IMG/VR virus record: IMGVR_UViG_3300010151_000009
Location: 20,512-84,511 of that record
Reading direction: 5' to 3' (one strand)
Length of the DNA stretch: 64,000 nucleotides
Origin: a virus
Position 1 is the first letter of the stretch. Each line of letters starts with the position of its first letter. This document shows, one piece after another, positions 888-46,962 of this stretch. The notes under the pieces were generated by a model. It was not told the DNA's origin, did not search any database, and saw only the letters and a list, made by a program, of their open reading frames with translations. The position numbers were made by a program, and so were the translations under genes.

Positions 888-2441
888 TTATATATATCTA
901 GGTAATGCTTTATAACCCCCACGTCTAGCTGTAGTATTCCTTCCTAAATCATAACCAGAGTAAGTTTTTTGTTTTAATTCTCCTGATCTAACTAAAGCGC
1001 TTTGTGTAGTAAAATTCTTTTCAAGATTTTCATTATATTCACCAACTTTCTTTGCATATTCTTGTTCTTGTTGTTTCTTCTCTGCTCTTGCTTTCTTTCT
1101 ACCTGTTAATCCTTTTACTACCGCTGCTCCTGCTCCAACAACACCTCCAATAATTGCACCTGCAGCATTTCCTATACCAGGAACAACAGATCCAATCATA
1201 GCTCCATATCCTGCATACTCTCCTGCAGTTCCTAAAATATCACCTGTAGCTTCACCGGCATTCCATGTAGTAGGGTCATTATCATCAGATCCCATACTAA
1301 TACCTTTCCCTACAATATTAGCTGCCATAGCATATGGACTAGGATTAACAGATGATGCAATTAATCCTTTTGTAGCTTCTTTACCTGCTTCAGTAGCTCC
1401 AGCTTTAACAAGTTCTGTTCCAACTTGTTTTGTTCCTTCTTTTACTACCTCTTTAGTTCCTTCTTTTACTACTTCTTTTCCTGCCTCTTTAACTAATTCT
1501 TTACCACCTTCTTTAACAAGTTCTTTTCCTCCTTCCGTAGCAAGTGTTTTAACTCCTTCTTGTGTTGCCAGTTGTGTACCCTTCTGTAAAGCTAACTCTT
1601 GTGCTTTCTTAGTAGCTAAATCAGTTGCTGCTTTACTAGCTACCTCAGTACCTTTCTGTGTAACTAGTTCTGCACCTTTCTTAGCAGCTAATTCTGAACC
1701 TTCTTCAACAGCTACCTTTGATCCTTCTGTAGCTAAAGTTTGAACTCCTTGTTTACCTATTTCTTGTCCAGCTTGTTGTTGTAGTATTTGTGCAGTTTGA
1801 TCGCCTCCAAAAGAAGTTAATGCATCCATTGTGCTACCTTGTCCTGCCTGAACAACTCCTTCACCTATTAATTGGCCTCCTTCTTGTGTAGCTTGTTGAG
1901 TAACCTGATCAGCCAATAATTTAGAAGTCTCGTCTTTTGCTGCCCCAGCTACACTCTCTTTTAAAGCGTCTCCAGTTACTTGTCCAGCTTTTGGGTCAAT
2001 CCATTTACCAGATGATTTAATAATTTCTTTACCCTGTCTTTTAGCCATTTCTTCCGCCCCTTCTTTTATGACTTTAGATCCACTTCCTACCAGACTAGAT
2101 ATTTGCTGGCTTTTAGCATCACGCTGCTGTTGTGATATTAAGAGTTGTTCTTCATTTTCTTTTTTCTTATCTATAAGTTCTTGTACATTTTCAGATGCAT
2201 CAGCTGTTAACTGGTCTTTCTCCGCATCCCATTTTGCTACTCTAGCCGCTTGAATTTCTGGACCTTGTTCTTCATAAACAGTCATAGAAGTAGAACCTCG
2301 TCCTGCATCAGCAATAGTATTCTCATCATACATACCACCACCTTGACCACCTGTTTGATATCTATTACGTACTCCGCCTTTACGTTTCTTTCTTTTGGGC
2401 GCTCCAAAAGGTATCAGTTTTTTATATGTTGTTGTTTTCAT
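888..2441 (-). CDS. Virion cargo/DNA-ejection protein with amphipathic repeats and C-terminal glycine zipper
   Basis: 517 aa; KE(L/V)VKEG(G/T) tandem repeats; GAMIGSVVPGIGNAAGAIIGGVVGAGAAVV glycine zipper; directly follows the muzzle gene, the cargo position in crAss-like phages. Confidence 0.7.
   Translation of the reverse strand: MKTTTYKKLIPFGAPKRKKRKGGVRNRYQTGGQGGGMYDENTIADAGRGSTSMTVYEEQGPEIQAARVAKWDAEKDQLTADASENVQELIDKKKENEEQLLISQQQRDAKSQQISSLVGSGSKVIKEGAEEMAKRQGKEIIKSSGKWIDPKAGQVTGDALKESVAGAAKDETSKLLADQVTQQATQEGGQLIGEGVVQAGQGSTMDALTSFGGDQTAQILQQQAGQEIGKQGVQTLATEGSKVAVEEGSELAAKKGAELVTQKGTEVASKAATDLATKKAQELALQKGTQLATQEGVKTLATEGGKELVKEGGKELVKEAGKEVVKEGTKEVVKEGTKQVGTELVKAGATEAGKEATKGLIASSVNPSPYAMAANIVGKGISMGSDDNDPTTWNAGEATGDILGTAGEYAGYGAMIGSVVPGIGNAAGAIIGGVVGAGAAVVKGLTGRKKARAEKKQQEQEYAKKVGEYNENLEKNFTTQSALVRSGELKQKTYSGYDLGRNTTARRGGYKALPRYI
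1380..1560 (-). repeat. Imperfect 24-bp coding tandem repeat (8-aa units KELVKEGG/KELVKEAG/KEVVKEGT)
   Basis: Visible in translation: EGGKELVKEGGKELVKEAGKEVVKEGTKEVVKEGTKQVGTELVKAG. Confidence 0.8.
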
Positions 2442-2446
2442 GTTTT

Positions 2447-5400
2447 TTATCTATAAAATTTTCTTTGCTCTACCTTTGTAGAATACAAATTTAGTAAATT
2501 ATTTTCAATATTATCATAAATTAAACGAATTCCTATCCATTTATCTATAAATTTTCTTTGTTGGTCCCAAGTTTTATTAAGATTTAGGTATCCTGCTGTA
2601 ACAGTTTTTGTCATACCCGTCTCAGTAAACATAGATTGTGTATTTGAAGTTGTTAAGGTTCCAGTATTAACTTGCCCTATAACATTAAGATTTGGTGATG
2701 TATAATATGCAGCTGTTTGTGTTGTATCTGCACTTAAGTCTCTAAATCTATTAATCTTCCAATGATTTCCTATACGTCTTATATTAACTAAATATTCTAA
2801 TATATCATTTGGCTGTGTACCATCTCCAGAAACCTGGAATGTATTATATAAAAAGAATGATGTCCATCCGTGCTCTAATACTCTTACTCCAGCTTCATTT
2901 TCTACATCACATGTATAGCCTATATTAGCAGTTAATACATCAAAAGTTGAAGTTTCATTATGAATAAATTCAAAAACACAATCATGAAATATTCTTTGTA
3001 AATCACCTCCATTAAAAGTAGCTATATGTCCATGCGCATCTTCTTGATATAGTACTCCTCTTATAATATCACTATTATGTTTCCATATAGCAGTATTACC
3101 ATATGTTGTACCAAATCCATCATTTACAGTTAAAATAACTGGATATTGATCTGTCATAGAATAAAAATCTGTAGAAGTATTAAAATAAATATAAGGTATA
3201 TAAGTATGGAAACTACTCCAAATATTTAATTCTGGATAATAAGATATTGTCCACCCTCCTTTTGTAAAATAAGCTGGATCATCCCAAGAAATTGGAGTCC
3301 AAGGGTTACATGGAGGTGCAGGTGGAGGCATAGCTATACATGGAAAATAAACTTTAAACACGCATTCATCAGCTATCCACGCCACGGCTCCTGCAGGAGG
3401 CGGAGCAGAAGTAATACTTGTACTATCTATCAAAAGCTGTGTAGGGTCTATTTGTCTCTTTGTTAAAATTATTCTTCTATATTTTGGATCCCAAATTGTA
3501 TGTAATCCGGTTCCTGCTATAGGATTATCTAATCCTCCCATACATGCTTCCTGGACTCCAAATTGAGATAAAGTATCAAATGTAGATAAATTATCTTGAA
3601 ACCATTGTTTCATACCTAAATCACTAAGTTCAACAAGTTTATCTCTCATTAAGAATACTTTTCTAGTAGCAGCATTAACAAAGAAGTATCCATGTCTTGT
3701 TGTAATGGCTGCCCATTGAGATTGAGTTCCACCATATCCTCCATCAGTTGAAATAATCTCTGTTGGTTCTTGTTCAAATAAATCTCCACTTCCTAAATAT
3801 GCATCTGATCCATCTCCCATTTGCATAGTTTGTTTTCCCGTTGCTTTAAATAAAGTTTCTTCCATATGGAAGTATAATAAATTATTAAAAGCAGATAACT
3901 TCCACAAGTCTCCTCTATTCTTAGGAAGATCTTTAAATTGATTAGCTAAGAATACTCTATAATTATCTATAATACTAGATGTATCTGCTTTAGCACTTCT
4001 ATGTACTCGAGTAGGAAATTCATCTTGTGTTGTATCTAAAACTGGTAATGGAAAAGCAGGCCTTAAATCATTGTTCTCAGAGTAATTTGAATTATATTTC
4101 ATATTATCTACATGAGTAAAATCATGGTCATCTACTCCAGCACTTATTAACATATTTTTAGCTACAGATCCAGGAAAGTACATACTTTTACTAGATTCTT
4201 CATGTCTAAAATTTATATTATCAGTTCCTTCGGTTATATAATAATGTAAAGCTTTTCTAGGATTTGAAGGACTACTAGCATCACTTGGTTTTATATGAGA
4301 AGCAAACCCGTATCTGCATATATATGTATCTCCGCCATATATATTTTTATCTATTAAAGGCTTATCCCATACACTACTATCTAAAGTTTTCGTACGATAA
4401 TCAGCAGTATTTCCACTAGATCCATTAGATCTATAATATACATCAGTACTAGCTGATCCGCTCCAACCATTATCTAGAGTAGGCTCATCAAAAACAAAAT
4501 TTTCCATGTCATCTCCTAAGCATTCCCATCCTGTCCAAATTAAATTCTGAGTATCAACTGATTTATACAGATCTGTTTTAAAAGCTACAAGATTACCTAT
4601 GTTATAAGCTGATCTAGCTCCAGGGACACCACTAGCATTTATCTCATTAATTGCTAATGAAGGAAATAGTCCAGTATTATGCATATAATCTCCCCATTCA
4701 TTTGGTTGAGGACATCCAGGAGCAGATATTGGTAAGGTTAAATTTTGATTCCATCCTGGTCTGTTATAAGTAGAATCAGCATACATTTCATGTTCATCCG
4801 CAAAGCCAAGAGCTATACAACTTTCTCCAAATTCATTGAATAATTTACCTCCAAACCCTAAAGCTGTACCATTAAATATAGAATCTCCTAATAAATATGT
4901 TTTTGCTTTTTGCCCTAACATTCTAGGATATCTATAAAATCCATTACTACTTCCACCATTTTGTGATCTATAACCGGACTGATATAGAACTCCCGCAAAT
5001 ATAGCTGTATGCATTCGTTGGGGGTAACAATTAAATTGTGCATCCCATCCCCATTCTTCTTTAGGCACTTTCATTTTTGGATCAGTAGACTCATCCTCAA
5101 CTAACTTAGTTTGCATTCTTTTCTCTTGATCTAATCCTGGACCATTAAATGCTATATTCTTAACTCTATAACAATTCTTATAATGTGTTGCTGGAGTAAT
5201 ACTTTCTTTACTTCTTAATAAATAAAAATCATGAAAAGAAAATATCTCATAAGCATAATCACAAGTATTAGGTGGACCTTCACATCCAAATGTATTTGTA
5301 TACCATGTTCCATCCGAATCATCTATGAATTGCAAAGGAGTTGAATACGCCCAAGGAGAAACTGCAGTTGGATCTTTAATCCAAAACTGTTCTGGCAAAT

Positions 5401-8221
5401 CTTGTAAAGTACTATTAATCTGTATTGCATCTGAATTACCTACACCTTCTTGACATATACCTAATTGTTCAAATTTTTGAATCATAGGAATTATAGCACT
5501 TTGTCCTAAAATAGTTCTATTATTATGAGTTCTATCTGCATGATAAATTCTAAATCCTTGAACTTTATCGGCTATACTTCGTGGTATTTTAATATCTCTT
5601 AAAGAGAATCCCAATCGTCTAACTTTATGTGATAATTTTAAATCAGTAAAACAAGCAGCAGGAACTGTAGCAGCTGAAGATAATACACAAAATCGTACTC
5701 TAGTTTCAGGACAATCATTATCTACATCGGCTTCTCCCCAATTTGCTTGTCTAACATCTGAATCAGTATTACCATCACAATGCGCTTCTACCCAAATAGA
5801 TTCTCCTGGTTGTAAATGAAAAGTTCTTCCTGTACATCCTGTATCTCCATTCCATGAATGGCACCCGCTATTATTTGAACTATCCCAATCTAACCAACCA
5901 CTTCCATTTCCTCCAGTACATGATGGAGGTCCCCATGTTACTGTTCCACCTCCGCAATCAGGCCACCTAAAATCATCAGATCCAATACAATCTGTACATT
6001 CTGCTCCTAATACACCTGTACTATTAAATCTGGCACAGCATGGAGAACTAGGATCATTAGTTGTTTTTTGTCTAAGTACAAGAAAATAATCACAAGTTAC
6101 ATCCATTTCTTGATCTGCAGTAAATCTACTTGTACCTCCACCTACCCATAATGCTGCTTGCATTGCTGGATCATTAGCACCATCTGACTGTTCAAAACGC
6201 ATACGCGTCCAATTACCACCATTTGATAATGTATTACAATAGCAACAATTACGATGATAAAATATTAAAACTCCAGTCCAAGCTGGTGTATTTGCTGCCC
6301 CAATACCTTCACTTAATTCTTGTTCACAATAATGATCTGCTTCAATTGCTTTAAAAGCTGAATTCTCATTTGATGGAAAATGATGATGCCTTACCTTTTG
6401 TCCTTGTATAGTGCCTACTGGTAGCATAGTGGTACCAGTAAATGGATTAGTAAAAGAATTTTCATCCCATATTTCATAGTCAGGAGTACTAGGATATCTT
6501 TCCGTAGCATTTTCCCAATAATTCATACCGTTACAATTAGGCCATAATCCTGTAAAACTATATTCAAAAAAGTGAAAGTTTCTAGAGTGTATACTTAAAT
6601 CTCTAAAAGCTTTTGCTGTATTAAAATTATCCGGTTGATCTAATTCTTTCATAGTTGGAGATGCTCCTCCTAAATTATCAATAATATCTCTTCCTGGAAT
6701 ATGATATGCATAAGTCATACTACCATCGGTCAAAATAAAAGCTATATAAAAAGCATATATTTCATCTCTCATATATCCTCTATACTTTTCTGCATTTGGA
6801 ACATATCTATAAGATAATTGATGATCAACAACTTGATTTACACCATTAAATCTATCAACAGTTCTTGATAAAAATCCAGTTTCTAAATTATCAACGGTTA
6901 AATATACTTCATCAAACCCTCGTAAATTTCCACCTCCTGGAGGATCACTTTCCATTAAATAAGTTTCTGGTGCTAATTTTATATTATTAGCATACTTTTG
7001 ATATCCTACATCTTTAGTACCTGTTGTATTTCCTAGATATAATATTCCATCTAATTGCTGTAGTGTTTTAGCTGTATCATAAGCTGTAGTATCTACAATT
7101 ACTTCTTCTACTGCAGCAGACTCAAAAGTTTCATTACCACTAAATATAACTTCCATATAAGGAAGACTATCAGGATATAGAAGACCTCCAGGTGGAGGTA
7201 GAGTTGAAATTTCCATATCTTTTAATTTAAAAGCTTCTACAGCATCTCCCATCTTACGAATAACAACAGGTCTAATATATTTATAATCCTCATTTAAATT
7301 AGTAACTCTCCATACACATGCCTTAGATGTTTGACTTCCCTCTTTCATTCCATCTTTCTTAGTTGTAGGTCTAGTATGATCATACTCATCAACAAGTGAA
7401 ACTGGATTAGAAATGGTTACATAATTTGTAGCATTTAAATCTACATCCACATATGCTAAAGCTAAATGATATACACCTGTTTTAAGGCCACCCCCTTCAA
7501 CAACAGCTGTTTGTCTTCCTGTATATATCCCACTAATAGCATCTTGGTAGTCCCATCTATTAAACGTATGAATATGTGGGATAGGGCCTGAATTAGGAAA
7601 TAAATTAAGTAAATCTATATGTTTATTGTGAGTACTCCATGGTAAAATACCATATATATGCTTTACATTTCCACCAAATGAATTATTTGCTCTTAATTGC
7701 CTATCTATATTTAATGTTCTTGGCGCATTAGTATTATCTGTCCAATAAATAATTAAATCTCCTTTAGCATCTATCTTATAAGTTCCTTCAATTGGGGAGT
7801 CTGTAGTAAATAAAAAATCTCTTCCAGGATAATAAGTTCCAGACACAGTATGTTGAGGATTTAAGACTACAGTATAAGCTTCAGTTGAACTATCCCATAT
7901 ACCTATTTCTGAATCAGGATGAAAAGGAATAAGTAAATCCGTAGGACGTGTATCTACAACAAATAAAATAACTCGTTCAGACGTAACTTCTATAGCTCCA
8001 ATAACTTTATTATTTTGAGATCCAAATATTTGAGCTGGAACAGCAGCTAAATTCGTTGGTGTACCTATATGCCCTGCATAATCAGTTCCTCCTTCATTAC
8101 TAATAGAACCTTCTTTTTCATTTATGATTATATTCTTAGCATGTCTCCAAGTTCCTTGAGGCTGATCTATCTCTCCAGTATCTTTGAAGAGACCTTTTAT
8201 AAATTTTTTATCATCAGCCAT
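2447..8221 (-). CDS. Tail muzzle / stabilization protein (crAss-like; P22 gp10-like)
   Basis: 1924 aa; N-term KGLFKD...WRHAKN...SNEGG, YWTDNTNAPRTLNI, GYMRDEIYAFYI...YHIPGR, VRHHHFP, GGDTYI, WTISY...WSSFHTY motifs typical of crAss muzzle; follows a ring protein. Confidence 0.8.
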   Translation of the reverse strand: MADDKKFIKGLFKDTGEIDQPQGTWRHAKNIIINEKEGSISNEGGTDYAGHIGTPTNLAAVPAQIFGSQNNKVIGAIEVTSERVILFVVDTRPTDLLIPFHPDSEIGIWDSSTEAYTVVLNPQHTVSGTYYPGRDFLFTTDSPIEGTYKIDAKGDLIIYWTDNTNAPRTLNIDRQLRANNSFGGNVKHIYGILPWSTHNKHIDLLNLFPNSGPIPHIHTFNRWDYQDAISGIYTGRQTAVVEGGGLKTGVYHLALAYVDVDLNATNYVTISNPVSLVDEYDHTRPTTKKDGMKEGSQTSKACVWRVTNLNEDYKYIRPVVIRKMGDAVEAFKLKDMEISTLPPPGGLLYPDSLPYMEVIFSGNETFESAAVEEVIVDTTAYDTAKTLQQLDGILYLGNTTGTKDVGYQKYANNIKLAPETYLMESDPPGGGNLRGFDEVYLTVDNLETGFLSRTVDRFNGVNQVVDHQLSYRYVPNAEKYRGYMRDEIYAFYIAFILTDGSMTYAYHIPGRDIIDNLGGASPTMKELDQPDNFNTAKAFRDLSIHSRNFHFFEYSFTGLWPNCNGMNYWENATERYPSTPDYEIWDENSFTNPFTGTTMLPVGTIQGQKVRHHHFPSNENSAFKAIEADHYCEQELSEGIGAANTPAWTGVLIFYHRNCCYCNTLSNGGNWTRMRFEQSDGANDPAMQAALWVGGGTSRFTADQEMDVTCDYFLVLRQKTTNDPSSPCCARFNSTGVLGAECTDCIGSDDFRWPDCGGGTVTWGPPSCTGGNGSGWLDWDSSNNSGCHSWNGDTGCTGRTFHLQPGESIWVEAHCDGNTDSDVRQANWGEADVDNDCPETRVRFCVLSSAATVPAACFTDLKLSHKVRRLGFSLRDIKIPRSIADKVQGFRIYHADRTHNNRTILGQSAIIPMIQKFEQLGICQEGVGNSDAIQINSTLQDLPEQFWIKDPTAVSPWAYSTPLQFIDDSDGTWYTNTFGCEGPPNTCDYAYEIFSFHDFYLLRSKESITPATHYKNCYRVKNIAFNGPGLDQEKRMQTKLVEDESTDPKMKVPKEEWGWDAQFNCYPQRMHTAIFAGVLYQSGYRSQNGGSSNGFYRYPRMLGQKAKTYLLGDSIFNGTALGFGGKLFNEFGESCIALGFADEHEMYADSTYNRPGWNQNLTLPISAPGCPQPNEWGDYMHNTGLFPSLAINEINASGVPGARSAYNIGNLVAFKTDLYKSVDTQNLIWTGWECLGDDMENFVFDEPTLDNGWSGSASTDVYYRSNGSSGNTADYRTKTLDSSVWDKPLIDKNIYGGDTYICRYGFASHIKPSDASSPSNPRKALHYYITEGTDNINFRHEESSKSMYFPGSVAKNMLISAGVDDHDFTHVDNMKYNSNYSENNDLRPAFPLPVLDTTQDEFPTRVHRSAKADTSSIIDNYRVFLANQFKDLPKNRGDLWKLSAFNNLLYFHMEETLFKATGKQTMQMGDGSDAYLGSGDLFEQEPTEIISTDGGYGGTQSQWAAITTRHGYFFVNAATRKVFLMRDKLVELSDLGMKQWFQDNLSTFDTLSQFGVQEACMGGLDNPIAGTGLHTIWDPKYRRIILTKRQIDPTQLLIDSTSITSAPPPAGAVAWIADECVFKVYFPCIAMPPPAPPCNPWTPISWDDPAYFTKGGWTISYYPELNIWSSFHTYIPYIYFNTSTDFYSMTDQYPVILTVNDGFGTTYGNTAIWKHNSDIIRGVLYQEDAHGHIATFNGGDLQRIFHDCVFEFIHNETSTFDVLTANIGYTCDVENEAGVRVLEHGWTSFFLYNTFQVSGDGTQPNDILEYLVNIRRIGNHWKINRFRDLSADTTQTAAYYTSPNLNVIGQVNTGTLTTSNTQSMFTETGMTKTVTAGYLNLNKTWDQQRKFIDKWIGIRLIYDNIENNLLNLYSTKVEQRKFYR

Positions 8222-19500: not shown

Positions 19501-22500
19501 TGGGTCAAAATTAAAAGCTAATGGATCTGTACATCCATAAACACACGGAATACAACAACAATCAGGTCCGGTTTGGCCTAAGACGCATGGAGGCCCGTAT
19601 AAAGCAGCTAATGGATCTGAATCATCACAATGACAAGTAGCAGCAGAGTTATAATTAGAAGCTAATGGATCCATACATCCGTATATACAACAAGCTGGTG
19701 TAGGAGTTCCTACTGTTACTTGCCAAGATGTAGCAAACATTCCTAATGTTCCTGATCCTATAGTTGTAGCTGTATTTACATCTATAAGACTCCAAGCTAA
19801 ATAATTTCCAATAATATCAGGAGGAACTACTAAACAAGTCTCTACAAGATAACAATCATCTTCAGCACAAAATATATCAGCTGAGAATGTAGTAATAGTA
19901 GGATATGCAACACTATTTGAAGTCCAAGTATATGGTCCATATACTGTTCCTGTATTTTGACCTGTAAGAGTAATAGTACAAGTATCCCATGCTAGATCCA
20001 TTCCACTTAAATTATCATCAGATAATACTAATTCAATTTCAGTTTGTCCAGGAGGACACCCACAACAATCATTATCATCTGTCCCATCACATAATGTACA
20101 ACATGGGCAGGTAGCTAGTGGATTATAATTTCCTGCTGTTGGGTCCATACAACCACATACAGGTAAAGTAATAGCTTGTGTATATTCATGATTACATACT
20201 GTTCCGTCTGCATAAGTTACTGTAGCAATCCATTTATATGTACCATCTCCATTAGCAAAGTATGGTGCTCCAGAGTTAAGTAGTGTATTACAATCTTCTA
20301 TAATTGAATGTGTATATGTTGTATTTACCCCACTATCTGTCTGCACATTAGCATTTATAACAGTAAATACAGCAGGAGCAATTTCATATGAAAGTGACCA
20401 TACAACAGTGGTAATAGGAGATGGACCTGGAGTAGGGCAAGTTAACATAACCCACATATCTACTACACATGGACCATTTGTTGCTCCAGTTCCAGAAGTT
20501 AATCCAGTACATTGAGCACAAGGAGTTGGATAAATACAACATCCATCATCATATCCAGGATTAGTAATTGTAAACCCAGCACAATTATCTAATAAGTTTG
20601 TGGCAGGTGTTCCAGGATATAATGATCCAAATCCTCCCATATTATTAATATATGTCATAGGCATAGACCCATCATCTAAACATGCAATACAACTACCATC
20701 ATCTATAGTAGCTCCAGCATTATAATTTGTAGAATTAACATCTGTACACCCATATGTAGCAACACAAACTGAACAATTAGTCGTAGCATGTGTTGCTGCT
20801 ACTGTTGCAGGAACAAGAGCAGGATTAGGTAGTGGTAATCCAGGTCCTGGTAAGGGAAGCATAGAATAATTATATGTATTAGGTAAAACAGGCCATGTAT
20901 CATGACATACCTGTCCCACATATTCCCAGCATGTAAGTGTAGTACCCCATCCACCACCATTAGTATAATATGGCATCATCACTGTTTCTCCCGGAAGAAT
21001 TGAAGCTCCTAATGCAGTTTCGAAAGCATCAAACCAATCTTGATTGTCATCTACAGTTTGAGCTATTGTACTTGCAACAGGAGCAAAGAATTCATTGGAT
21101 CCATTACATGTCTGAAATATATGCCAATAATGACAACAAGAATTCCATCCTACAGCAGTAGTACCTGCAGCTGTACCATCACAGTTATTAGTCCAAACAT
21201 TACTATAATCACCAGCACAAACATCTAAACATCCATTTGTACCATATGTACAAGTTCCATCATCACAATCAGCTGCTGCATTATAGTTAGATGCTAAAGG
21301 GTCTGTACATCCACATACTTCTAAAACTACAGCAGTTATTGGACTACTATAATTACATTTTGTACCGCTAGCACCTCCATAATATAATGAAATATTTACT
21401 TGATAATTTCCGGCTCCATGAATAAACTCATCTATTGAATTAATACAATCATAAGAATATGTTGCACTAATAGGGTCTGTAATAGGGAGTCCTGCAAAAC
21501 TTGTTCCTGCAACTAAAGTATTAGCCCCACCTGGATCAAATCTTAATTCAATATCATAAGTAGCAATTACTCCATTTGTAATTAAATCACATGTAAATAA
21601 AAAGTCATAATCAGTTGGACATGGATTTGATGCATTTGCAGTAAAGGTATTTGTTATAGAAGGAGGATCACAACAAGGATATATACAACAACTTGTATCA
21701 GGACCTCCTAACGTACATAAACAATCAGCATTATAAGATGCACTATAATTAGCTGCAGTTGGATCCATACAGCCTTCATAAAGACAACAAGTATCAACTC
21801 CCCATGTTCCTCCAAGTATATAAGCTGCACTTCCTGGCAGATTATTATTACAATCTGTTGTACAGCCTACACAGGTATTACACGCAGCTGGATCCATACA
21901 TCCTGGTATACACATAAAACAAGAGCCATCATCTATACAAGCCATTGGATCGTAATTACACATCATTGGATCAGTACATCCTAGTGTAGTACAACAAGCA
22001 ATAGTACTATTAAATGAAGATTGATGTAGTACAATTTCAATTAAACTATTTGTACAATTTCCCCAATCAGCAGATCCTATAGTATTACTTATTTGTGCTC
22101 CAGTCGCAGCTCCAGTTATTAATTGATGACAGGTATTTATAAGAGCATCAGTGATAGGTCCAGGTGTAGTAACTGTATGATATACAAACCCTAATGCATT
22201 CGTAGTTCCTATAAGTACATTTCCTCCTCCATTTAGCTCTAGATGTATATCATAACCAGTAACTGGTACACCAAATTGATCTACTACACTTATAGCTAAA
22301 CAATGACAATCTGCACACCCACAAACTCCACTTCCTCCTAATGTATATAAAAAAGGAGTTATAGTATTAACAAAACTAGTTGTTGTTACTCCCACATCAA
22401 AATGTTGTTGAGCTAAATCCCATCCATAATTATCTAAACCACCATATCCTGCATCATGTAGAAGAGCACTTCCACTTCCTCCAGGAACATTATTAACTCC

Positions 22501-38157: not shown

Positions 38158-38487
38158 TTAAAGATAATCACATATACTATATAAACTATATTGTAAAGTC
38201 AATTCTTCTCCTTGTTCTATTTTTCTTAATGTTTTTAATTTTTTGTAATCATCATTTTCATCATCTTCTATAAGTTCACAATTAGGAGTTTCAGAATGAT
38301 TAATAAATCCTCCTAATGGCGTACGTATATAATCATGTTGAAAATTTGGATCATATACATGACTTATACCTATAACTACCTCCCCCGGAATATCTTCTGT
38401 AGCGAGAATCCCAGCTCCATGAATTTGTGACGGACCTATTGCTAAGTACTCCGGTAGAGGGTTATAAGGTAATTTCTTTTTTTTCAT
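38158..38487 (-). CDS. SET-domain protein (putative lysine methyltransferase)
   Basis: SQIHGAGILATEDIPG, GGFINHSETPNC, RKIEQGEELTLQY: all canonical SET motifs. Confidence 0.88.
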   Translation of the reverse strand: MKKKKLPYNPLPEYLAIGPSQIHGAGILATEDIPGEVVIGISHVYDPNFQHDYIRTPLGGFINHSETPNCELIEDDENDDYKKLKTLRKIEQGEELTLQYSLYSICDYL

Positions 38488-40451
38488 TAATAATAATTTT
38501 TATTAAACCATTCATTAGAAGCATTATCTTCTAATATATCTTTAACTTCTGCATTATATAATTCTTTAGTATGATACATACCAATCATAAATGCCATTAC
38601 ACGGTCAAAATTGCCTTTATGATTGAATTTAATTAATTCTGTTAAAAATGCAGGATCATAAATCTTATGCAAATTTAGTAATTGTTTTCCATTTTCGTCT
38701 GTTCTTCTTACAGTATTTAACCAGTCTCTAATATAAATCTCTCCTTGACGTTTCCTAGGTTCTGTCATGTGCATACCATATTGACGTTTTACTGTTCTAC
38801 TTCTAAGTTCTTTTTTATCTAACATCTCAAACTCTTCTTGTAATTTATGTAACTTTCTATGTCTTTTAGCGTATGATATAACCTCCCCACGATCATTCTC
38901 AAATCCTATTTTACATCCATAATAATCTGCTAATGTAAATAAATTTCTATTATAATCATCTTGCGTATTAGGTCGTCCTACATAAGATGCTACTATAATA
39001 TCATCAGGCTGAGATAAATTATTAGGTCTTTTTAATACATATGCAGCGCCTAATGATGTGCTATCTGCAGATTGGTTTTGTCCATACGGGTCATGACAAA
39101 TTACATACATATTTAGAGGTACTTGTTGCGCAGAGTTTTTATAAGGAGATTCATATATTACTACAGCTCCTGTAGTATCATCATCTTTCCTATGAGGAAA
39201 TTTTAATACTTGTTTTAAATCTCCATCTGGTTTAAATTTAACATCTCCTTTAGAATTATAATATAAACGTCCAACTGTACCTATAGCCTGTAAATTATTA
39301 GCTTTTATATTATTATATTGTTCTTGTAAAGATGCAACATCAAATAAATTAGCAGTTACTTGTAAAGTAGCCTCTTGAGGTGAAAAAGGGTGCTCCGCTA
39401 TATATTGGTCTAATGATTTTGCATCAGCTGCACCCTTCTTCTTTTCCCTCATTCCTTTCTCATACTCTATAGCTTGTTCTCTTATTGAATTTCCATTCTC
39501 GTCTATAAAGCCATCTAGATTTGTTTGTATAGGAATAAAATATCCACATGTACTCCCCATAGCACCTTCATCCCATATATTCTCATAATTCATACAATCA
39601 TATGCTTCTGGATTATAAAAGATTTCTTCCATTGCCTCAAAATCTGCTCCTTCTGTACCACCTGTTCCAAAAGCTACCATTAATCCTAGTGTTTTAGAAC
39701 CTTGTCTCATTGTTGGCATTGTTACTTCCCATGCTTTTAATAGTCCTGGGAATGAACCCGCTTCTTCAAAGAATACTAACTCCCCTGCTTTACCCCTTAC
39801 TTTATCTGGTGCATCTTTTAATGATACTCCCATTATTTGAGATTTCATCCCCATTTCTATTTCAATTCCATTAACTTTTTTCTTATATCCAGACATCTTA
39901 TTCATTTCCCTATCACGTAATCTTGGTTGAGCCCATGCCGTATGATCATCTATAAAAGATAAAAACTCCCAAGCTTTTGAGAGTAATCCATCACCAATTA
40001 AATATTCTTTTTGGGAGGCAAATACAAAGTTTTTTGAATTCTTTACAAAGAAATAGTTTCTAGCAAGCATGGCTCCAGCTTTATAAGAATATCCTTTACG
40101 CCTTGCTTTAAGAACAATCATATGTTTATTCTCTGCCCTAGCTTTGTCTATCTCATTAAAATATTCCCAATCTCCATCATAAAATCTAGGAAATGTACGT
40201 TCCCGTTTAGATTGAATTGTACCATCTGGAAGTTCTTCATCTACAGCCCTATCAATAGGACAGTAGTTTAAATAAAAATAATGAAAGCCTGTAACATGTA
40301 ATTCATCTACTTTATATCCATACATGCACCGTTCCTTTTCTTCATCCCAATACTCATAATAATCACGAGTTCCAGGAAGAGCATCTGTATAACGACCGGT
40401 CTCTAAAAATCTGACTGCGGCTGGTCTGAGTCTGTCTGTGTCTCTGAGCAT
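38487..40451 (-). CDS. terL: Terminase large subunit
   Basis: LKARRKGYSYK (Walker A), FEEAG (Walker B), GTGG, HDPY nuclease motif, GNFDRVMA. Confidence 0.92.
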   Translation of the reverse strand: MLRDTDRLRPAAVRFLETGRYTDALPGTRDYYEYWDEEKERCMYGYKVDELHVTGFHYFYLNYCPIDRAVDEELPDGTIQSKRERTFPRFYDGDWEYFNEIDKARAENKHMIVLKARRKGYSYKAGAMLARNYFFVKNSKNFVFASQKEYLIGDGLLSKAWEFLSFIDDHTAWAQPRLRDREMNKMSGYKKKVNGIEIEMGMKSQIMGVSLKDAPDKVRGKAGELVFFEEAGSFPGLLKAWEVTMPTMRQGSKTLGLMVAFGTGGTEGADFEAMEEIFYNPEAYDCMNYENIWDEGAMGSTCGYFIPIQTNLDGFIDENGNSIREQAIEYEKGMREKKKGAADAKSLDQYIAEHPFSPQEATLQVTANLFDVASLQEQYNNIKANNLQAIGTVGRLYYNSKGDVKFKPDGDLKQVLKFPHRKDDDTTGAVVIYESPYKNSAQQVPLNMYVICHDPYGQNQSADSTSLGAAYVLKRPNNLSQPDDIIVASYVGRPNTQDDYNRNLFTLADYYGCKIGFENDRGEVISYAKRHRKLHKLQEEFEMLDKKELRSRTVKRQYGMHMTEPRKRQGEIYIRDWLNTVRRTDENGKQLLNLHKIYDPAFLTELIKFNHKGNFDRVMAFMIGMYHTKELYNAEVKDILEDNASNEWFNKNYY

Positions 40452-44088: not shown

Positions 44089-44625
44089 TTAAGTATATTT
44101 AAAATATTTTATCTCATTTTTATATTTGTCCTTAACTATATTGAATAATTTAGGGGTATAACATTCTTTAATTTTAAGACTACATTCACCAGTAGATCCC
44201 TGTATAGGGAGTATAAATTTAGAAATATCTACCTCTTCACAAAAAGTATTAAAATCTTGTTGTAAATTATCAAAATTAATATACTTATTAACAATAACTT
44301 TATTGTCTATACTGAAATAATCAGTTAAAAGATCTTTGTCCATGCGATCAATATCTGTTCGATTAGTAATAAACTCTTCAAAAGACATTCCTTTATATTC
44401 ACGCTTAAAGAAACACCAATATGATAATAATCTTGACCATGGATTTCTTATAACCCCAAATATTTTATAATTAGAAAATTTTCCCTTCAAATGTTTTTTA
44501 TAAACAGCTATTGAACGATGATTACCTAAATGGTCTGCTAAATACTTATCTAATGCAAGTCTAAGAGTATTAGAAGCAGTTCTAGGAGGAGTTATTAAAA
44601 TAAATTTCTTTTTGTGACTAATCAT
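44089..44625 (-). CDS. Sulfotransferase family 2-like protein
   Basis: MISHKKKFILITPPRTASNT (5'-PSB loop) and VIRNPWSRLLSYW (3'-PB motif), NFDNLQQDF, C-terminal Y..EIKYFKY. Confidence 0.8.
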   Translation of the reverse strand: MISHKKKFILITPPRTASNTLRLALDKYLADHLGNHRSIAVYKKHLKGKFSNYKIFGVIRNPWSRLLSYWCFFKREYKGMSFEEFITNRTDIDRMDKDLLTDYFSIDNKVIVNKYINFDNLQQDFNTFCEEVDISKFILPIQGSTGECSLKIKECYTPKLFNIVKDKYKNEIKYFKYT

Positions 44626-44993
44626 TATCCTCTTTGTTTCATTTGTTTTATCTTCTGACGCATTTTATGGGGCATCTCTGGAGCATTGGGTTTTCCATCT
44701 TCACCACTATGATGTTTTTTCCCTTTCCATTTACCTAGTAATTGATGTTCACCTACTAATAAGTATTTTTTACCATCAATTTCTGTTTTAATAGCCTCTG
44801 TTCTTGGGTCTACCATTACCGTATCTCCAGTCTTAGTGAAAGTACAGTCTTTTCCAATGGCTATTACTTGTAATATATTAGATCGTGCAGCATTTGCTGC
44901 AGCTGTTGTCTCATCTAATATGATCCCTGATTCAGTTTCGTTAATTGTTGGGTCTGGAAGGACAACCCACGATCCATTTGGTTTGAATTTCAT
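44625..44993 (-). CDS. groES: Co-chaperonin GroES-like protein
   Basis: MKFKPNGSWVVL...TESGIIL...VIAIG....KTGDTV....IDGKKYLLVGEHQLLG; carries a basic C-terminal extension. Confidence 0.82.
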   Translation of the reverse strand: MKFKPNGSWVVLPDPTINETESGIILDETTAAANAARSNILQVIAIGKDCTFTKTGDTVMVDPRTEAIKTEIDGKKYLLVGEHQLLGKWKGKKHHSGEDGKPNAPEMPHKMRQKIKQMKQRG

Positions 44994-45014
44994 AATCTAT
45001 ATATTTGTTTGGTA

Positions 45015-45047
45015 CAAAGATATAAATTATTTTTTTATAAATCCAAA
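45015..45047 (-). promoter_or_regulatory. Bacteroidota promoter (-33 TTTG, -7 TATCTTTG) for the groES operon
   Basis: TTTG at 45047-45044, 21-nt spacer, TAnnTTTG at 45022-45015. Confidence 0.65.
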
Positions 45048-45069
45048 TATTATGACGAAAAGTTTATTA

Positions 45070-45326
45070 ACAGTGAGAATTGGATATAACTTTCCCCCTT
45101 GATTTTCTATTTCAAACTTGGATTTCACTCTAACAGTGCTCCTTTTTAAGGGACCCAAGGATAGTAAGACTGATGTTAATTCATCGCACATACCTATGTG
45201 CATTCTACCCTAATTAGAGCTTATACGCTCGTTCTTTTGCAACTACCGGAGAAAACTCTATCTCTATTTGAGACTACAATCCGATGTCTTTTCCCATTTT
45301 TGATTACCGTGGGATGATAATGTTGC
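45070..45326 (-). ncRNA. Candidate structured non-coding RNA (~255 nt)
   Basis: No ORF on the minus strand, GC-richer than flanks, about 10 nested helices with G-U pairs valid only on the minus strand, and an upstream promoter box. Confidence 0.6.
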
Positions 45327-45330
45327 GGTG

Positions 45331-45360
45331 CAAAAATAATAAAAATACTTTAAAAACAAA
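45331..45360 (-). promoter_or_regulatory. Bacteroidota promoter (-33 TTTG, -7 TATTTTTG) driving the candidate ncRNA
   Basis: TTTG at 45360-45357, 18-nt spacer, TAnnTTTG at 45338-45331. Confidence 0.6.
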
Positions 45361-45398
45361 TTATTTCTAAAGTATTTTTACTATTTAAGTGTTTATTT

Positions 45399-45623
45399 TT
45401 ATTTCTGATCTACAAATTTAAATAAAATTAACAATGCTACTAAGCCTACAAAGCCGTTCTCGCCAAAGCAGCTAATAACATCCATTACATTAGCTATTAC
45501 ACTAATTCCAAATACTCCTCCCCCAAAAACAATTTCTGCCATTACTCCAAATGATACCATCACAAGAAATAAGTTAGTCATGTTCTTAAAAAAGTCTGTT
45601 GCATAATTAAATACTGTTTCCAT
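45399..45623 (-). CDS. Small two-TM membrane protein
   Basis: 74 aa, hydrophobic (LVMVSFGVMAEIVFGG; GFVGLVALLILF); preceded by its own TAnnTTTG box at 45654-45661. Confidence 0.65.
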   Translation of the reverse strand: METVFNYATDFFKNMTNLFLVMVSFGVMAEIVFGGGVFGISVIANVMDVISCFGENGFVGLVALLILFKFVDQK

Positions 45624-45810
45624 AAATAAAATAATTTTTAAAGGTTAAGTGGGCAAAAATACAAAAAAAATCTGACAAAAAAATTTTTTTAGGGGAAATC
45701 TGTGAACGTACGGGGGTACTAGGAACAACACCCCACCAAGTAATTAGGGTTTCGAGTACTCCACCCTATTTCATATTCAAAGAATATTAACCAATTTTAT
45801 ACATACAATC

Positions 45811-46161
45811 ATGAGAAAATCTAGTAAACAAAAAGTAGACTATGTAGCGCTTCGTAAGCCCTACATCAACAAGAGATGTCTTGTTGAATCTTGTACCAAA
45901 CATCGTAATCATTCTGATAACAATGGCTACACCTTAACCCTTAGTGTCGAGGGACACGAAGAGTTGATAGAAAATGTCTTTTCCTTTAGCAAGAAAAAGA
46001 AAGGCGATTTCGTTAAGTTTGATCCTCAAACTGCCTCAATCGTTGGCACAACTTCTATTGCTTCGCAAAAGGCGTTGCACCGTGAAACCAAAGGATTATC
46101 ATCCTGTATGGTTTCTGTCGCAACATTAGCAAATGTTACTCCAAAAGACAACCCTAAATAG
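45811..46161 (+). CDS. First gene of the plus arm, hypothetical early protein
   Basis: 116-aa ORF with an A/C-rich leader, followed by a terminator. Confidence 0.6.
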   Translation: MRKSSKQKVDYVALRKPYINKRCLVESCTKHRNHSDNNGYTLTLSVEGHEELIENVFSFSKKKKGDFVKFDPQTASIVGTTSIASQKALHRETKGLSSCMVSVATLANVTPKDNPK

Positions 46162-46175
46162 GGTTGTTTTTTTTT
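46148..46175 (+). terminator. Rho-independent terminator
   Basis: acaacccta-aa-tagggttgt followed by a T-run. Confidence 0.8.
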
Positions 46176-46464
46176 ATTATAGCACAACACCTTAAACTAA
46201 TATCGGTTTAACATGGTTGTGTGTTGAATAAGCCTGAGAGTTTGTAGTTTGTATTCGTATGAACTACAGCTCTCACGTTTATTTCAGCCTCTAAATGTTA
46301 AACAAGTAATACGACATATTACATACTATAACATAAATGAGTAGTTTGATGTAAAATCTAGGTCGTAAGAATAACAACTTAGGTATAGGACGCATACTCT
46401 TATTAACCACTGACCTGTTATCGCTCATTTTATTTATATCCAAAACAATTAAACTCAACAAACA

Positions 46465-46620
46465 ATGAATGAATTAACAAAGCATCTCATTAAAGAGATA
46501 AAACAACGTAATAAGGATAAACAATGGATAAAAGACAATTTCATAACCGTTGATGAATTCTTAAAACCATATAAACTAAAAGAGAAAACTAACCAAAAAA
46601 TGAAAAGATATGGCACATAG
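46465..46620 (+). CDS. Small hypothetical protein (51 aa)
   Basis: Translated by hand: MNELTKHLIKEIKQRNKDKQWIKDNFITVDEFLKPYKLKEKTNQKMKRYGT; A-rich leader; overlaps the next ORF. Confidence 0.5.
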   Translation: MNELTKHLIKEIKQRNKDKQWIKDNFITVDEFLKPYKLKEKTNQKMKRYGT

Positions 46621-46825
46621 ATTTAACTTTAGTAATTGGTATCCAAAATCATTTAATTATGATCCAATGTTATTAGGACACAACACTTATCTGTTACATC
46701 TAGGGTATTTAATAGCTGAAAAGGATAGAACTCAATTTAATAAGAATGTACTTATGCAAGGACATAATTATAACAAACGAGAAATCAATTCCTTTTGGCT
46801 AACTGTTGAAACAATGTCAAAATAA
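46610..46825 (+). CDS. Hypothetical protein
   Basis: 71-aa ORF in the early region. Confidence 0.5.
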   Translation: MAHRFNFSNWYPKSFNYDPMLLGHNTYLLHLGYLIAEKDRTQFNKNVLMQGHNYNKREINSFWLTVETMSK

Positions 46826-46875
46826 ACTATTTAAGTGAGCATTATTATCATAACCATCATTTAATGCACACCAAT

Positions 46876-46912
46876 AAAAGGACTATCATTTAAATATGAT
46901 AGTTCTTTTTTT
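46876..46912 (+). terminator. Rho-independent terminator
   Basis: aaaaggactatcat-ttaaat-atgatagttctttt followed by a T-run. Confidence 0.7.
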
Positions 46913-46962
46913 CACAACAATCAAACACATTAATCATTTAAAACATTTAATAAAACACAATC

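Follow-up and report, generated by a model that had tools for sequence, protein, structure and literature searches.

A conserved, predicted structured RNA ahead of groES and the virion genes in marine crAss-like phages, with shorter relatives in Flavobacteriaceae islands

We analysed a 64,000-nt stretch of viral DNA (positions 20,512 to 84,511 of the IMG/VR virus record IMGVR_UViG_3300010151_000009), referred to here as the window, which is part of an 84.5-kb record estimated to be 98% complete. Our subject is a non-coding interval of the minus strand that lies between a 74-aa open reading frame (ORF; 45399-45623) and a groES-like gene (44625-44993), where an original prediction made from the letters of the DNA had proposed a novel structured RNA with a promoter of its own. 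TerL of the window (38487-40451) is up to 41.7% identical to that of crAss-like phages such as cr60_1 (gut Crassvirales) and 34% identical to that of the Flavobacterium psychrophilum Fpv phages, and based on this likeness we consider that the window comes from a marine crAss-like phage. All coordinates are positions in the window, and the features at the locus, in the order of predicted transcription, are as follows.

45357-45360, minus strand: -33-like TTTG of the RNA promoter, read directly, 18 nt upstream of the -7 box
45331-45338, minus strand: -7 box TATTTTTG, of the TAnnTTTG type, followed by CACC and then GCAAC (45326-45322)
45082-45330, minus strand: predicted conserved structured RNA of about 249 nt, defined as a comparative block, with a predicted 5' end near 45326-45330
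45015-45047, minus strand: groES promoter, with TTTG (45047-44), 21 nt and TATCTTTG (45022-15)
44625-44993, minus strand: groES-like co-chaperonin gene (Pfam Cpn10, E 3.5e-5; PHROG 3188 co-chaperonin GroES, E 1.1e-11)

The promoter of the RNA reads on the minus strand as first described, with TTTG, 18 nt and then TATTTTTG, which we take to be a -7 box of the Bacteroidota TAnnTTTG type; the distance from this box to the start site is assumed. Upstream flank of 75 nt or more is available at 71 loci; 43 of these have a TAnnTTTG box at exactly this position and 18 others have one no more than 30 nt away, and the 10 loci that lack an upstream box have 5' ends that are misaligned or extended. The placement of the -33-like TTTG varies among relatives when judged by eye. 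In blastn comparisons the conserved block has sharp edges, starting at the -7 box and finishing at UAUAUCC (45082), and this conservation edge is what places the 3' end of the RNA, which is predicted only. The block thus spans approximately 45330-45082, where 45326-45070 had been proposed. The copies of the RNA have a G+C content of 0.36-0.44, the window copy being at 0.39 compared with about 0.31 in the surrounding 2 kb, and the element is single-copy within its own genome. A separate feature of this flank is an A+T-rich inverted repeat of about 53 nt (45334-45386; 87% complementary) in the interval from the 74-aa ORF to the RNA, overlapping the -33 region of the latter. By eye it recurs in L025, L065, and L119, which are relatives that share the upstream 74-aa ORF or have a similar upstream flank, and it could be a terminator of the 74-aa ORF or an operator.

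To collect relatives of the element we combined protein, nucleotide, and covariance model searches. A search with the groES-like protein recovered 29 related viral contigs, 25 of which carry the upstream non-coding stretch according to blastn, and the remaining four end too near groES to include it; identity to the RNA of the window is 73-87% in blastn matches that span 230 nt or more. The most conserved motif, that of helix P6b described below, was found in at least 118 stretches of viral contigs, an nhmmer profile identified 87 copies among 147 loci, and a covariance model (R1) matched all 86 sources given to it with 111-302 bits, corresponding to 70 distinct sequences (the E-values of R1 and of the second model, R2, introduced later are rough). 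The RNA is present in every related contig with enough flank, and the phage copies all come from one clade with a conserved gene order. Neither blastn of 44600-45700 nor tblastn of the groES-like protein gave a match among 50,697 phage records, and R1 found nothing in cr60_1, Fpv2, crAss001, and phi14:2; at the sensitivity of these blastn, tblastn, and R1 searches, no cultured phage relative carries the element. By eye, eight copies (L023, L026, L028, L029, L100, L143, L145, and L067) have helix P3a replaced by roughly 85 inserted nt that form hairpins of their own, and in these the RNA is about 340 nt long and its 5' end lies further upstream.

The predicted fold consists of ten helices with 52 pairs arranged in two domains, a 5' three-way junction (P1, P2, and P3/P3a) and a 3' domain (P4, P5, P6/P6a/P6b, and P7), followed by a G-rich tail. 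Its elements are listed here.

45239-45326, minus strand: P1, GCAAC (45326-22)/GUUGC (45243-39), closing the 5' three-way junction
45292-45314, minus strand: P2 hairpin, UCCC (45314-11)/GGGA (45295-92), with the conserved loop GGUAAUCAAAAA
45245-45285, minus strand: P3, AUCGGA (45285-80)/UCCGGU (45250-45), with an internal loop containing the near-invariant UUUUCUCC (45255-48)
45260-45274, minus strand: P3a hairpin, GUCUC (45274-70)/GAGAU (45264-60), with an invariant AAAUA loop
45114-45234, minus strand: P4, long-range helix, GAAC (45234-31)/GUUU (45117-14)
45128-45219, minus strand: P5, long-range helix, CUCUAAU (45219-13)/GUUAGAG (45134-28), adjoining P4
45158-45211, minus strand: P6, AGGGUAG (45211-05)/CUAUCCU (45164-58)
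45186-45201, minus strand: P6a hairpin, GCAC/GUGC, with a conserved loop containing AGGUA
45172-45185, minus strand: P6b hairpin, GAUG/CAUC, with an invariant AAUUAA loop; the most conserved stretch of the phage copies
45135-45156, minus strand: P7 hairpin, imperfect, GGGUCC with GGAGCACU
45082-45100, minus strand: 3' tail, the near-invariant AAGGGGGA (45100-45093) and then a possible hairpin ending in UAUAUCC (45088-82)

We assessed this fold on two alignments, A2, a MAFFT alignment of 17 non-identical close copies that was not fitted to any model, and A3, in which the 70 distinct sequences were aligned to R1. In A2, 98.9% of the cells are paired compared with 37-46% when the 3' partners are slid by one to three columns, and 19 of the 52 pairs show compensatory change; in A3, which is biased toward the model by its construction, 35 of the 52 pairs are compensatory and 96.4% of the cells are paired. 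When A2 was compared with 500 shuffles, none equalled the observed value on four of five measures, and on the fifth, further pair types, 30 of the 500 did. When every column was compared with every other, the ten pairs with the strongest covariation all proved to belong to the model structure, and the comparison adds a lone pair in the P4/P5 internal loop (GC 51, AU 12, GU 4, CG 2). Covariation of homologs upstream of groES, one of the checks suggested along with the original prediction, came out in its favour.

In the 5' domain, compensatory pairs number 3/5 in A2 and 5/5 in A3 for P1 and 4/5 and 5/5, respectively, for P3a. P2 and P3 are both invariant in A2; in A3, four of four pairs of P2 (e.g., UA 41, CG 19, GC 2) and four of six pairs of P3 (e.g., CG 41, UA 21, GC 3) are compensatory, and distant copies change P2 from AUCCC/GGGAU to ACCCC/GGGGU or AGCCC/GGGC and P3 from AUCGGA/UCCGGU to GUUGGA/UCCAAC. 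In the 3' domain, compensatory pairs make up 2/4 of P4 in A2 (GC 10/AU 7; UA 11/CG 6) and 3/4 in A3, 4/7 and 6/7 of P5, and 3/7 and 5/7 of P6, the last with 99.8% of cells paired in A3. The closing pair of P6a is GC 41, AU 26, and UA 1 in A3, P6b has 100% of cells paired with one pair that is GU 29, GC 27, and AU 14 (A3), and two of the six pairs of P7 are compensatory (e.g., CG 37, UA 24, GC 5 in A3). The G run of the tail is invariant in A2; the possible hairpin of the tail has 77.6% of cells paired and no covariation.

Seven of the eleven stems that had been drawn from the window alone stand, two are replaced by P4 and P5, and two can form and lack covariation; the fold differs from the proposed one in its 3' half. 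The stems GCAAC/GUUGC, CGGA/UCCG, GUCUC/GAGAU, AGGGUAG/CUAUCCU, and GAUG/CAUC all show compensatory change in relatives, and CGGA/UCCG extends to AUCGGA/UCCGGU in P3. Others are narrower or wider than drawn: only four pairs (UCCC/GGGA) of UCCCA/UGGGA are kept as P2, the fifth A-U pair not being conserved, only GCAC/GUGC of the seven window pairs of GCACAUA/UAUGUGC is conserved as P6a, and the CCUU/AAGG hairpin is the tip of the longer conserved hairpin P7. The GAGC/GCUC hairpin is unable to form in many relatives, its 3' half belonging to P5, and AGUGA/UCACU is not conserved and has its 3' arm outside the conserved block. Finally, most sequences allow UUUGA/UCAAG and GGA/UCC to pair (80.6% of cells), with no covariation beyond shuffles; UUUGA overlaps the P4 strand, so that the UUUG/CAAG hairpin, which lacks covariation support, and the 3' strand of P4 are mutually exclusive, a point that bears on whether the RNA could be a riboswitch. 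RNAalifold on the first alignments had instead dropped P1 and paired UCCC/UCUCC with the 3' GGGGGA. We rejected this alternative because P1, P2, and P3 show compensatory changes and the alternative uses invariant bases only.

The strand assignment, which had been based on G-U pairs, is likewise borne out, because the four pairs U51-G92, G105-U240, U126-G219, and U190-G214 are G-U in 17 of 17 sequences in A2 and thus fix the strand as minus. Folding of the single sequence gave a different picture: the 257-nt minus strand has a z-score of -0.88, with 40 of 200 shuffles as good, and the plus strand has a z-score of -1.76. The window fold is therefore no better than shuffles, which by the criterion set out with the original prediction would count against the element, and the case for the RNA rests on comparison. 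We judge that the comparative sequence data outweigh this null result, and conclude from them that the conserved, structured non-coding RNA predicted on the minus strand, with a host-type promoter of its own, is real.

The element does not correspond to any RNA family that we could identify. There were no matches to Rfam 15 covariance models at the gathering threshold in the whole 64-kb window or in 10 related loci, island copies included, and allowing E up to 10 over 44900-45500 gave four chance-level matches only (10.7-17.8 bits; thresholds 41-53.5). ARAGORN detected no tRNA or tmRNA genes in the window, in agreement with the first reading of the sequence, which had found no match to tRNA, tmRNA, RNase P, or a ribozyme core. 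The element is also not protein-coding, as judged by the lack of a conserved ORF (in 64 full-length copies the element contains no ATG ORF as long as 50 aa; median 14.5 aa) and by the length of its indels, 54 of 56 of which measure 1 or 2 nt when copies are compared with the window. We found no description of this RNA in the literature. Pieces of it may be among the 8,495 candidate structured RNAs of 29-151 nt that are reported from IMG/VR intergenic regions (Fremin et al. 2023; PMC10690425). A study of UG27 reverse transcriptases in Crassvirales (PMC9226505) proved unrelated to the RNA.

The position of the RNA is also conserved. In 75 of 76 distinct loci groES lies downstream, and the RNA precedes, in the same orientation, the gene series groES, c6, c7, c1, c2, c3, c4, c5, which in the window runs on to terminase (TerL), portal, and virion genes. 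The genes upstream of the RNA are mostly on the opposite strand and the GC skew turns at approximately 46 kb; based on this divergence and skew turn, the RNA would be the first thing transcribed in the leftward virion block. In 45 of 75 scored loci, the window included, groES comes first after the RNA (47 with L044 and L144, assigned by eye). The median gap between RNA and groES in the groES-first loci is 77 nt and holds a complete second promoter, with a TAnnTTTG box present in all 45 as well as in L044 and L144. The separate groES promoter noted at the outset (TTTG 45047-45044, 21 nt, TATCTTTG 45022-45015), which had been the ground for calling the RNA an independent transcript, is borne out.

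The other 28 of the 75 loci carry a different ORF between the RNA and the groES promoter, whose box moves along with groES where other ORFs are inserted. In 26 of the 28 the inserted ORF starts 3-53 nt after the end of the RNA, and a TAnnTTTG box between the RNA and the inserted ORF is found in none of the 28, so that these ORFs would hardly be expressed except from the promoter of the RNA. The claim that the RNA is an independent transcript rather than a leader is thus not established. In the window, a canonical terminator downstream of the RNA was looked for and not found. The conserved AAGGGGG was considered as a Shine-Dalgarno sequence for the downstream ORF and rejected, as by eye no start codon is conserved at a suitable distance. 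The commonest insertion is a family of 62-64-aa ORFs with paired Cys motifs (c9; motifs noted by eye), which directly follows the RNA in L108, L050, L010, L020, L008, L016, L032, L058, and L021; the other insertions are c36+c44, c63, c53, c48, and c114.

A second kind of mobile element, small integrated islands of marine Flavobacteriaceae, carries shorter relatives of the RNA. Among 151 sampled Flavobacteriaceae genomes, R1 gave one match (genome G141; 43.7 bits with filters off), and a 22-bit match in genome G002 was discarded as a false positive lying inside a 396-aa ORF. A second model, R2, which covers 70 positions of the P3 core, identified nine loci in 6 of 41 relatives of G141. These island copies keep P1, P2, P3/P3a, the AAAA joiner, the UAUAAA element, P5, and the AAGGGG tail, and have about 18-30 nt in place of P6-P7. 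Because they lack P6-P7, an exact scan for the P6a-P6b motif over the genomes of 185,579 species gave no match. The G141 copy occupies one end of a roughly 7-kb region that is flanked on one side by two tRNA-Pro genes with an integrase and on the other by a partial tRNA-like repeat; a ParB-N/DNA-methylase gene lies within it. ORFs with no promoter box ahead of them lie directly downstream of the RNA at the island loci, and six of the nine have a 64-aa ORF first and an HTH_17 gene after it. In all five loci of this kind that were folded, the RNA and the 64-aa ORF are separated by a terminator-like hairpin (-12.5 to -19 kcal/mol) that has a U run at its end or just after it. A shared RNA core thus heads an operon in two kinds of mobile element. 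Three genomes (G141, G161, and G174) have two RNA copies each, of two subtypes (65-69 and 37-40 bits), and at L291 (G161:C2) the pair of 64-aa ORF and HTH_17 gene occurs twice, about 3.2 kb apart.

From this arrangement we tentatively favour, as a reading that may well be right even if we stop short of calling it probable, that the RNA is a cis-acting leader that governs read-through into the virion operon. Host RNA polymerase would start the RNA 4-6 nt after the TAnnTTTG box, and the RNA would act in cis, either attached to its own polymerase or sensing a factor, and decide whether the polymerase reads through into the long operon, by attenuation or antitermination like that of HK022 put, EAR, and conAn2. 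The second promoter would let groES be made independently, from unmodified transcripts, in most of the phages, and the P6-P7 subdomain absent from the island copies would be a phage-specific addition. RNA-based antiterminators act in cis only and sit at operon starts, and conAn2 regions measure 260-600 bp (PMC8191782; PMC9378689). At phage and island loci the RNA has the same placement between promoter and operon, and the terminator-like hairpins behind the island copies, together with the mild excess of terminator-like sites given below, hint that terminators may be read through. The element resembles put (HK022), EAR (Bacilli), and conAn2 (pLS20-type plasmids) in being a structured RNA right after the promoter of a long phage or mobile-element operon, and conAn2 also in size; put and EAR are much smaller, and the host phylum here is Bacteroidota. 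Rfam 15 revealed no sequence or fold homology to these systems, a comparison that covers only those members with Rfam models.

Several observations weigh against a leader. With a well-formed promoter of its own 50-90 nt after the RNA in the 45 groES-first loci (or 47), groES does not depend on the RNA for its expression, as had been argued at the outset. The small hairpin and U-rich stretch at the 3' end of many copies could simply mark where a stand-alone transcript finishes. The excess of terminator-like sites in the downstream block is mild (12 compared with 6.3 +/- 2.5 in shuffles, both strands), and we set it aside as too weak to use. In size and elaboration the RNA goes far beyond put and EAR, and neither a feature for binding RNA polymerase nor a ligand or partner protein was identified. 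Shared ancestry accounts for part of the positional argument, given the single clade and conserved gene order of the phage copies, and by eye the promoter of the island copies lacks an exact TAnnTTTG box.

A broader form of the leader proposal is that the RNA represents a new class of polymerase-directed leader in Bacteroidota that, alone or with a phage factor, reprograms host RNA polymerase and carries it through the 45-kb virion-gene block of marine crAss-like phages, with the trimmed copy in the islands making the island operon respond to the same signal. We regard this extension as somewhat unlikely; if it were true, the islands would be candidate satellites of crAss-like phages.

Another comparison is with the late leader of phage lambda, where promoter PR' yields a short 6S transcript that ends at tR' and is read through in the presence of Q. 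The RNA resembles it as a short transcript at the head of a late or virion operon, and in lambda extension of that transcript decides late expression. The lambda leader differs in not having a conserved ornate fold and in being controlled by DNA-bound Q, and we identified no Q-like gene here. Ornate, covariation-supported RNAs that are associated with phages and lack a known function are also exemplified by GOLLD and ROOL (bioRxiv 10.1101/2024.12.08.627333); these are two to three times larger, occupy another genomic position, and have Rfam models that give no match to the element.

The strongest competing explanation, which we consider a serious possibility although not a probable one, is that the RNA is a stable stand-alone transcript acting in trans, for example as a protein scaffold or decoy, which is started from its own promoter and ended or processed near 45082. 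Such an RNA would accumulate during infection, and the downstream ORFs would be expressed through incidental read-through. The separate groES promoter and the possible 3' hairpin with its U-rich tail in many copies fit this explanation, and the very conserved loops and junctions (AAAUA, AAUUAA, GUAUAA, and AAGGGGGA) are as in partner-binding RNAs, but the 3' hairpin shows no covariation, promoterless ORFs lie directly behind the RNA in 28 of 75 loci, and the position at the operon head is kept in two kinds of element.

Stable phage RNAs of this sort have a precedent in the cultured crAss-like Cellulophaga phage phi14:2, which is reported to make two abundant and persistent intergenic non-coding RNAs, at the g004-g006 junctions, without a known function (bioRxiv 10.1101/2020.03.07.982082). 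Like the element, they are non-coding and come from an ORF-free region near a block boundary in a crAss-like phage of marine Flavobacteriaceae. The two are not detectably homologous, however: R1 has no match in the phi14:2 genome (NC_021806) at E up to 1, and the best score over 1900-7000 is 8 bits with filters off. In addition, the phi14:2 RNAs are, according to the same paper, early and made by the virion polymerase, whereas the RNA here has a host-type promoter and heads the virion block.

We looked up the locus in 24 sequencing runs (20 RNA-labelled, from 11 studies), each holding 0.07-0.10 of the sampled words, four of which (X1, X2, X3, and X10, all as Logan contigs) were compared in detail. 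Coverage in X2 is confined to 45655-45690. In X1, X3, and X10, parts of 45170-45326 are spanned by contigs of relatives at low depth: those of X1 and X10 have their first base at about 45319-45320, just downstream of the predicted start, the one in X10 carrying on beyond the 3' end of the RNA, and the one in X3 reaches 46 nt upstream of 45326. These contigs are at most a weak hint of expression, on which we do not rely, as they could stem from DNA carry-over.

Less well supported, and in our view improbable, is a catalytic or assembly role, either as a self-processing ribozyme or as a part in packaging or virion assembly comparable to the phi29 pRNA. The size and the ornate, tightly conserved core would suit such a role, as would the location at the head of the terminase-portal block, and the self-complementary AAUU within the invariant P6b loop could by inference support loop-loop contacts. 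Set against this, Rfam 15 yields no ribozyme or pRNA match when E is allowed up to 10, the large terminase of the phage is of the ordinary kind, and the island copies lack P6-P7, with no virion gene among the ten ORFs of the G141 island that were scanned against Pfam. A DNA-level element (an origin, a packaging site, or an operator array) or a small protein gene is very improbable, since, despite the nearby strand switch and GC-skew minimum at about 46 kb and a 58-aa ORF (45027-45203) that overlaps the element in the window and has no family match, the compensatory changes include strand-specific G-U pairs that would be meaningless in duplex DNA, and the ORF and indel data given above argue against coding.

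The crAss-like phages are among the most abundant phages known, and the control of their virion-gene block is poorly understood. To our knowledge, no RNA-based control of transcription elongation has been described in Bacteroidota. Its length of about 250 nt and its ten covariation-supported helices make the RNA a strong candidate to represent a new class of functional RNA. The trimmed island copies provide a culturable route to experiments and hint at a link between the islands and crAss-like phages, and, should the RNA act in trans, it would still add to the known phage RNAs one whose conserved tertiary core merits structure determination.

Two neighbouring features of the window complete the description of the locus. 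Directly after groES lies a sulfotransferase-like gene (44089-44625; Pfam Sulfotransfer_2, E 6e-4, below the curated cut-off), whose ORF cluster, c133, is absent from the locus maps listed, and on this basis it looks like a cargo insertion. On the other side, the region 45624-46960 (about 1.3 kb), where the coding strand switches and the GC skew has its minimum, contains only short ORFs and a 13-bp hairpin with a T run (46143-46172). A comparable gene-poor region of about 1.7 kb in phi14:2 is described as heavily transcribed (bioRxiv 10.1101/2020.03.07.982082).

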